From the NCBI GenBank assembly GCA_046497275.1, contig JAWOFX010000036.1:1-14756 (forward strand): a stretch of 14,756 bases of DNA. The letters run 5' to 3'. This DNA comes from Promethearchaeia archaeon (GTDB lineage Archaea; Asgardarchaeota; Lokiarchaeia; Sigyniarchaeales; SOKP01). Under the pieces are notes generated by a model. The model made no database searches. It saw nothing but the letters and a program-made list of their open reading frames with translations, and was not told the DNA's origin. How positions within the stretch are numbered: the first letter of the stretch is position 1; each line of letters opens with the position of its first letter. Positions 8,443 to 8,826 of this stretch are shown here, piece after piece. The translations under genes were made by a program, and so were the position numbers.

Positions 8443-8826
8443 ATGAAGTTTTGTAAAGAATGCGGTGCGCTGATGTTGCCTGGTAAAGATAAAAATGGGA
8501 ATAAAGTATTTAAATGTAAATGCGGAGTTATTGAGAAATTTTCTGAAGATGAATCGGAAAATTATAAGATCTCAACTGAAATAAAGCGAGATTTAAAATT
8601 TGAAGTCGTAAATGCTAAGGACATCATCGATTGGAAGGAAAAAAATCTAAAGAGCACGATTAAAAATTTTAAATGCCCAAAATGTGGTTATAACAAGGCA
8701 TCATTAGAGACTAGGCAAACTAGAAGTGCAGATGAAGGAATGACAGTTTAAAATATTACATTTTAAATCATTAAACATTTTATTGTCTGCCTTCGATGTG
8801 GTAGAATGATTAAAATCGGCAGTTAA
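8443..8826 (+). CDS. tfs: Transcription factor S (TFS/RpoM, TFIIS-like), intron-containing: join(8443..8744,8775..8826), 117 aa
   Basis: N-terminal Zn ribbon CKEC...CKCG and C-terminal CPKCG...QTRSADE. The unspliced ORF stops at 8751 lacking the last CxxC. The missing part (HFIVCLRCGRMIKIGS*) lies in the same frame from 8776 to 8826. Removing 30 nt gives ADEGMTHFIVCLRCG, matching the family spacing ADEPxTxFYxCxxCG. Confidence 0.9.
8745..8774 (+). other. Bulge-helix-bulge (tRNA-type) intron in tfs mRNA
   Basis: Sequence AGUUUAAAAUAUUACAUUUUAAAUCAUUAA. Central 4-bp helix AAUG(8739-42)/CAUU(8769-72), 3-nt bulges ACA(8743-45) and AAA(8773-75), inner stem G8746-U8768 plus UUUAAAAU(8747-54)/AUUUUAAA(8760-67), outer pair G8738-C8776. 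Cutting after the second nucleotide of each bulge excises exactly 30 nt and restores the frame. Confidence 0.85.

Follow-up and report, generated by a model that had tools for sequence, protein, structure and literature searches.

In a genome of the Promethearchaeota (Loki-type Asgard archaea), the gene for a TFS paralogue carries a 30-nt insert that splits the C-terminal zinc ribbon of the encoded protein, and the coding sequences on the two sides of the insert are able to pair with each other. The locus raises the question of whether the insert is an intron of the bulge-helix-bulge (BHB) type, and of what part in its splicing could be played by the exon pairing and by a CAUU motif that occurs both in the insert and in the downstream exon. 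The gene lies in a window of 14,756 nucleotides, by which we mean the whole stretch of DNA that was analysed; searches of the window against Rfam and for tRNAs gave no match.

The split gene and its distribution

The unspliced ORF (8443-8751, forward strand) is terminated by an in-frame TAA (8749-8751) inside the insert, and its Zn_ribbon_TFIIS match covers only positions 1-26 of the 39 in the profile. The absent half of the zinc ribbon (FIVCLRCG...) sits 30 nt downstream, in frame with this ORF. The parts of the gene are as follows:

8443-8744, forward strand: exon 1 of the TFS/RPB9-type paralogue (Pfam Zn_ribbon_RPB9 and Zn_ribbon_TFIIS), with the N-terminal zinc ribbon, the QTRSADEG hairpin and the first half of the C-terminal zinc ribbon
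8745-8774 (equivalently 8746-8775), forward strand: putative BHB intron of 30 nt, with an unchanged codon position in 14 family genomes and in 8 metagenome alleles
8775-8826, forward strand: exon 2, (T)HFIVCLRCGRMIKIGS and the stop codon, containing the second CxxC of the zinc ribbon; it shares its frame with exon 1 and equals the C-terminus of the protein of the intronless orthologue L002

Excision of 8745-8774 yields ...DEGMTHFIVCLRCG..., in frame and identical to the intronless orthologues, and the predicted spliced product (...DEGMT joined to HFIVCLRCGRMIKIGS and the stop) matches the intronless orthologue L002 letter for letter.

A total of 135 family genomes were searched using an intronless orthologue as the query; orthologues were present in 121 of these genomes and 122 were scored. 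The insert occurs at the same codon in 14 of the 122 (30 nt, and 31 nt in one). It is missing to the letter in 107 of the 121 tabulated orthologues, which are uninterrupted here and encode precisely what splicing is predicted to yield; L076 is a further intronless orthologue, with a DEGPT variant. A pattern scan of metagenomes supplied eight more distinct intron-bearing alleles, among them L210, which is nearly identical to the window's own allele, and brought the total to 22. The intron-bearing alleles span six genus-level groups (g1, g3, g5, g7, g11 and g12). They do not form a clade on the upstream gene region (AU test, p = 1.5e-71) and the best tree has 11 state changes, a scatter which implies that the intron has been lost, or has moved, many times.

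The in-frame stop at intron nucleotides 4-6 is kept in all 22 intron-bearing alleles (columns 40-42 of alignment A2), as TAA in most; G079 has TAG and G055 has TGA. Both A>G substitutions preserve the stop as well as a G-U pair of the intron hairpin, so that an unspliced mRNA would always end at the same truncated product.

Two assemblies deserve mention in this context. The G055 assembly contains both an intron-bearing and an intronless copy (G055:C351 and G055:C106; loci L034 and L042), which points to a strain mixture, a contamination or a true duplicate. The L039 contig (G093:C110) ends exactly at ...GGAATGAC, the 5' splice site, and this may be an assembly break arising from polymorphism in the presence or absence of the intron.

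Three public gene calls (P0005, P0106 and P0120), annotated as 'RNA polymerase subunit M' or 'RPA12/RPB9/RPC11 family', have a length of 101-102 aa as compared to 116-117 aa for the intronless proteins, and this length is that of the window's own ORF stopping in the intron. They have probably been cut at the intron, with exon 2 missed by annotation, in which case gene callers truncate this TFS paralogue at 101-102 aa. A search of the protein collection for a 117-aa protein matching the window's own spliced product found none.

The genome to which the window belongs (3.85 Mb, 98.9% complete) has genes for the endonuclease and the ligase of BHB splicing, namely two EndA-domain ORFs (PF01974) of about 200 aa (C46:30392-30622 and C168:8310-8564) and two RtcB genes (PF01139; C100:5154-6461 and C145:7959-9266). 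Asgard EndA has been described as the broad-specificity (alpha-beta)2 type (PMC5829648); the two EndA ORFs fit that endonuclease, the type assignment being taken from the same report. In this genome ARAGORN detects only 26 tRNA genes, of which 14 have introns and some of the intron sizes are implausible. Many of the tRNA genes are probably too interrupted for ARAGORN, in line with a 2026 preprint on Asgard tRNA introns.

The predicted bulge-helix-bulge fold

The insert and its flanks can be folded as a BHB motif comprising the following elements:

8739-8772, forward strand: central helix H, AAUG 8739-8742 with CAUU 8769-8772 (register 1), compared in 22 alleles
8743-8745, forward strand: 5' bulge ACA, with the predicted cut between C and the last A (cut rule, PMC2738675)
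[quoted passage not shown]
8746-8768, forward strand: intron hairpin h' of 9 bp, 8746-8754 with 8760-8768 and loop 8755-8759 (P 0.8-0.99)
8731-8784, forward strand: proximal exon-exon helix h, compatible with the BHB, formed by G8738-C8776, a bulged A8777 and GAUGAAG 8731-8737 with UUUUAUU 8778-8784

Two 3-nt bulges are thus placed on opposite strands with a 4-bp helix between them, and the core is flanked by h' (9 bp) on the one side and by h (G8738-C8776, the bulged A and 7 bp) on the other, in an arrangement other than the predicted minimum free energy (MFE) structure of the window's own allele. Archaeal BHB motifs are cut between the second and third bulge nucleotides (PMC2738675). Cutting both bulges in this way would give the correct mature sequence in frame here, and in every allele the wobble position of the Thr codon is then filled by the last nucleotide of the 3' bulge, whichever base it is.

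When the complete model of BHB core, intron hairpin and proximal exon helix (Model A) was compared across homologues, 98% of it was paired in the 14 family alleles and 96.5% in all 22, as against only 29-55% when the 3' partner was slid by 1-3 columns. In hairpin h', 98.5-99% of the cells are paired and three pairs show two-sided changes (A-U/G-C/U-A; U-A/C-G; U-A/A-U). Three of the four pairs of helix H are formed in every allele. The remaining first pair (columns 30/64) is A-U in 5, U-A in 4, U-G in 1 and mismatched in 12 of the 22 alleles; in those with U-A, a synonymous GGA>GGU change in exon 1 is coupled with CAUU>CAUA in the intron, and this swap lends direct support to register 1. All four pairs of H are therefore standard in 10 of 22 alleles, and the other 12, with three pairs and an A.G or A.A mismatch, represent a relaxed BHB motif. 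On the comparison of homologues, the BHB fold is thus a supported prediction. A BHB shifted by one position (AUGA/UCAU) was considered for the alleles with the A.G mismatch and was rejected, as its cut sites break the reading frame.

The same comparison bears on whether the 30 nt are an intron at all. They might instead be a decaying insertion in a pseudogene, or a stretch whose stops are read through, and the genome does hold a second TFS-like gene, which is intronless and 35% identical (C83:12204-12485, reverse strand). However, exon 2 is open, in frame and conserved in 22 of 22 alleles, and the length of 30-31 nt, the BHB geometry and the covarying hairpin have been kept across six genus-level groups. 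Read-through would also add 10 residues to the zinc-ribbon hairpin, and the remaining ORFs of the window are normal under table 11. We regard this alternative as very improbable.

Exon pairing and the competing register

Two further pairings involve the exons in the window's own allele:

8723-8794, forward strand: distal exon-exon helix, GCAGAUGA 8728-8735 with UUGUCUGC 8783-8790, extended by GAAG 8723-8726 with CUUC 8791-8794 (P ~1.0 in the window's own fold)
8737-8781, forward strand: competing register 2, GGAAUG 8737-8742 with CAUUUU 8776-8781, which excludes helix H (P 0.88-0.98 in the window's own allele)

A first-pass annotation of the sequence had named distal exon pairings, the two copies of CAUU and the two registers in which AAUG can pair with them, and all of these are indeed in place. 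The exon helix that is conserved in all alleles is, however, the proximal helix h, which was absent from its list. Cells of helix h are paired at 100% in the 14 family alleles and at 99.4% in all 22, with one-sided G-C/G-U changes only, and all 8 of its pairs are formed in 14 of 14 intron-bearing compared to 50 of 107 intronless alleles. The 8 bp of the distal helix (GCAGAUGA/UUGUCUGC) all form in 8 of 14 intron-bearing alleles (groups g1, g12, g3 and g7) and in 6 of 107 intronless ones. Its GAAG/CUUC extension is lineage-specific, being fully paired in 3 of the 14, and alleles of the g11 type lengthen the stem differently, with GCAG/CUGC.

The strength of exon pairing was expressed as the duplex energy between the 24 nt at the 3' end of exon 1 and the 24 nt with which exon 2 begins, in a comparison among alleles that are related. 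The mean is -15.5 kcal/mol for intron-bearing and -8.3 for intronless alleles. Each of the 14 intron-bearing alleles has a stronger duplex than its nearest intronless neighbour (mean difference -8.4), such nearest-neighbour contrasts being a weaker control of relatedness than independent pairs, of which just two lie on well-supported branches. The duplex of the window's own allele (-19.7) was also compared with a synonymous null obtained by resampling with the window's own codon usage (-9.6 +/- 2.9; P = 0.0018); GAAG/CUUC and the 8-bp distal helix occur jointly in 0.4% of the synonymous samples.

The difference in duplex strength stems from synonymous codon choices. Constraint at synonymous sites across homologues had been proposed in the first-pass annotation as a check on the exon pairing, and the codons that go with the intron are Asp GAU (14/14 intron-bearing vs 83/107 intronless), Ile other than AUA (AUA in 0/14 vs 35/107), His CAC (8/14 vs 21/107), Phe UUC (6/14 vs 15/107) and, as the codon of the 5' bulge, Thr ACA (13/14 vs 20/107). 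The sequence of the 5' bulge itself thus seems constrained beyond its pairing context. In close pairs such as L033/L046, the differences are concentrated at synonymous positions within the initial 18 nt of exon 2; these two alleles differ at 8 of 30 nt at the start of exon 2 and at 8 of 105 nt upstream. Since helix h varies by one-sided changes only, with no double compensation, the case for selection is carried by this codon bias. On these grounds the exon-exon pairing looks selected, as the outer helix h of an hBHBh' splice motif, which is in agreement with the earlier proposal that it matters. The pattern indicates that carriage of the intron goes with reshaped synonymous codons in both flanking exons, which build up and extend the stem between them.

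The same observations may be read without any selection on pairing. The complementarity would then be forced by the protein, in which DEG faces HFI, and would otherwise reflect common ancestry: recombination would have spread the intron together with the exon sequence around it, as one or two cassettes in which the codon differences hitch-hiked. Only two exon-2 types, AUC AUC UGY and CAC UUC AUY, are found among the intron-bearing alleles, exon-pairing register 3 appears in 47% of the alleles that lack the intron and in 58% of the synonymous resamples, and helix h lacks double-sided covariation. Flanking exon sequence that travels with the intron as a cassette (co-conversion) could inflate the number of independent cases. 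Both cassette types are nevertheless strongly self-complementary despite differing in sequence and register, and each has a distal extension of its own (GAAG/CUUC with GCAGAU/GUCUGC, or GCAG/CUGC). The 14 paired contrasts in a single direction and the P value of the window's own allele likewise speak against an origin without selection. An equally strong duplex does occur in one intronless allele, L002 (G002:C51, the orthologue of window positions 8722-8799), which keeps the full distal stem (GAAG/CUUC and GCAGAC/GUCUGU) and, at -19.5 kcal/mol, has the strongest duplex of the 107. L002 is, however, the sister of the window's own allele, which suggests a recent and precise loss of the intron. 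In our assessment, the explanation by protein sequence and descent is improbable.

In all 22 alleles the cleaved exon halves are predicted to stay paired, at -14.5 to -25 kcal/mol. The proposal of a clamp that aids ligation holds for the exons as such, which are predicted to keep the halves together; it fails for register 2 as the clamp, this register being intact in 4 of 22 alleles. A clamp is the role expected of helix h and is inseparable here from its role in cleavage.

The two copies of CAUU do compete for AAUG in the predicted energies. RNAfold of 8715-8800 places the non-cleavable register-2 fold at about 95% and the BHB fold at about 1%. The MFE structure (-20.2 kcal/mol) is the register-2 fold, with z = -3.0 against dinucleotide shuffles, 3 of 200 of which fold as well. 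The pairs of register 1 have P of about 0.01 in this allele and the distal pairs about 1.0; helix h is weak, with 3 G-U pairs, and is not chosen by RNAfold. Constraining the RNA to the BHB carries a penalty of +5.8 kcal/mol at 37°C or of +6.3 at 20°C. The low share of the BHB reflects either an error of the energy model or inefficient splicing of this allele. As a control, too small to calibrate these values, RNAfold was applied to the tRNA introns of the same genome, only 3 of which have a strict BHB, and gave P(H) of 0.01, 0.83 and 0.97. In a series of growing transcripts, helix H has P of 0.5-0.7 until about position 8786 and the fold then flips to register 2 once GUCUGC 8785-8790 is present. 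As H is favoured early in the transcript, splicing could still take place, either co-transcriptionally or on RNA captured by the enzyme.

Among the other alleles, register 2 is strongly favoured in mg210, G005 and G017, which together with the window's own allele (G000) show P of at least 0.94 and a BHB cost of +5.3 to +8.2 kcal/mol. P(H) is 0.33-0.64 in g3 alleles and reaches 0.75 in some g11 alleles. The ACA loop that had been foreseen after excision is recovered, in that the spliced or nicked product of the window's own allele is predicted to fold into a hairpin with an ACA triloop; this geometry is confined to g1, g12, g3 and g7 alleles and is perfect in four.

Conservation of register 2 does not follow from these energies. 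It is fully intact in those 4 of 22 intron-bearing alleles (3 of 14 in the family) as compared to 58 of 107 intronless ones, and is thus rarer with the intron within the family (Fisher 0.025, uncorrected for relatedness). It is broken at columns 31/70 (A31-U70) in 15 of 22 alleles and at columns 30/71 in 5 of 22. Resampling of synonymous codons with the window's own usage creates register 2 in 62% of samples, a frequency in keeping with the reverse complementarity of AUG (Met) and CAU (His) and with the common use of GGA and UUU. Register 2 is enriched over neither the intronless genes nor this codon null. His CAC, which is the commoner His codon among intron-bearing alleles, breaks register 2 and turns a G-U of helix h into G-C, and if anything suggests a pressure against register 2. 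A conformational switch, the other function proposed for the duplicated CAUU, would have two mutually exclusive folds that are both conserved or covarying, and only register 1 is conserved with covariation; the proposal is not upheld. Across the alleles compared, register 2 would appear to be an unconserved by-product of ordinary codons and a lineage-specific side effect. That a competing fold is thermodynamically dominant in one genome does not by itself make it a designed switch.

Two further readings were rejected. A second BHB built on register 2 turns the bulges into internal loops and gives a product without CxxC. As for a target-site duplication, the ends of the intron share only 1 nt with the flanks and both copies of CAUU lie away from the insert boundaries.

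Register 2 might nonetheless be functional in the window's own lineage (G000, mg210, G005 and G017), as a zipper or a switch. Before cleavage it would throttle splicing and so determine how much truncated factor is made relative to the full-length one; once the RNA is cut, AAUG would leave the intron and zip onto exon 2, eject the intron and present the ends in the ACA triloop to RtcB, as in XBP1, for which this principle has been shown experimentally together with RtcB (PMC4687415). The energies quoted above for the four alleles agree with such a role, the nicked exon halves fold into exactly the extended register-2 stem, the length series suggests that H forms first and is displaced later, and partial triloop geometry is also seen in g3 and g7 alleles. 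Opposed to this are the presence of register 2 in only 4 of 22 intron-bearing alleles, its greater frequency without the intron (54%) and as a default of codon usage, and the CAC and GGU changes which destroy it in other intron-bearing alleles. The four alleles belong to one part of the gene tree and may simply keep ancestral common codons; their variation is uninformative, with mg210 differing from the window's own allele outside the registers only. We consider a functional register 2 in this lineage unlikely. Less likely still is the full proposal, in which the exon-2 CAUU acts as an XBP1-like zipper and throttle at once, so that most full-length RNA is kept from adopting a cleavable form, only nascent or enzyme-captured RNA is spliced, the intron is ejected, the ends are aligned and the ratio of half-ribbon to full-length TFS is set. 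If true, it would amount to a regulated decision on mRNA splicing in a close prokaryotic relative of eukaryotes.

The explanation that we favour, with fair confidence, is that tfs carries a BHB intron, that the exon pairing is its outer helix h and that the competition of register 2 for AAUG is a side effect. Helix h would display both 3-nt bulges for the splicing endonuclease to cut, and would keep the exon halves together until their ends are joined by RtcB. Part of the pairing would be forced by the protein, the D-E-G codons being complementary to the H-F-I codons, and the rest tuned by synonymous codon choice in the intron-bearing alleles. The CAUU of the intron would have to pair with AAUG to build the central helix; that of the exon would be plain His-Phe (CAU-UUU), with a cause unrelated to the intron copy. 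In the window's own allele, default codons would let exon 2 beat the intron for AAUG at equilibrium. The cleavable fold would then be a minority state, which would need either to be caught by the enzyme or to be exploited in the nascent transcript, ahead of the synthesis of 8785-8790.

Relation to known systems

BHB splicing of archaeal mRNAs was found for cbf5 only in the literature searched, which yielded no publication on introns of the BHB type in tfs or in mRNAs of Asgard archaea; the 2026 preprint deals with Asgard tRNA introns only. One intron site with 22 intron-bearing alleles and 107 intronless orthologues offers a further comparison.

The known counterpart of register 2 is the zipper of XBP1 mRNA, whose exon bases leave the intron to pair with the opposite exon, so that the intron is expelled and the ends are brought into line for RtcB (PMC4687415). 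XBP1/HAC1 splicing (Peschek et al. 2015, PMC4687415) likewise employs a protein endonuclease and RtcB, and register 2 would re-pair the exons in a similar manner. In XBP1, however, IRE1 recognises twin stem-loops where tfs has a BHB, and the XBP1 zipper is conserved across metazoa and has been tested by mutation, whereas its analogue in tfs is a predicted register intact in 4 of 22 alleles.

The predicted fold resembles the canonical hBHBh' introns at position 37/38 of archaeal pre-tRNAs in its 4-bp helix and two 3-nt bulges, and its outer helix h consists of exon sequence, like the anticodon stem of those pre-tRNAs. With the intron removed, the exons would form a loop of 7 nt (AAUGAC+A) on the closing pair G8738-C8776, with a nick 1 nt away from the 3' stem, and would mimic a tRNA anticodon loop. 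In contrast to pre-tRNA introns, tfs has no tRNA body, its helix h is coding sequence with a bulged A after the first pair, and in the window's own allele h is weak, with its 3 G-U pairs, and is outcompeted by another register in the predicted energies.

The nearest documented relative is the BHB intron in the cbf5 pre-mRNA of Crenarchaeota (Watanabe 2002; Yoshinari 2006; Yokobori 2009, PMC2738675). The patchy distribution of that intron has been read as secondary loss, and the intron has been tied to a hetero-oligomeric, broad-specificity endonuclease (PMC2738675). The intron in tfs is similar to it in the predicted cut between the second and third bulge nucleotides, in its patchy distribution and in the link to a broad-specificity endonuclease. 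It differs in that the gene is a TFS paralogue of Promethearchaeota, for which splicing is predicted only, and in that over 100 intronless orthologues are available as a reference for its exon arms and reveal the tuning of synonymous sites in these arms.
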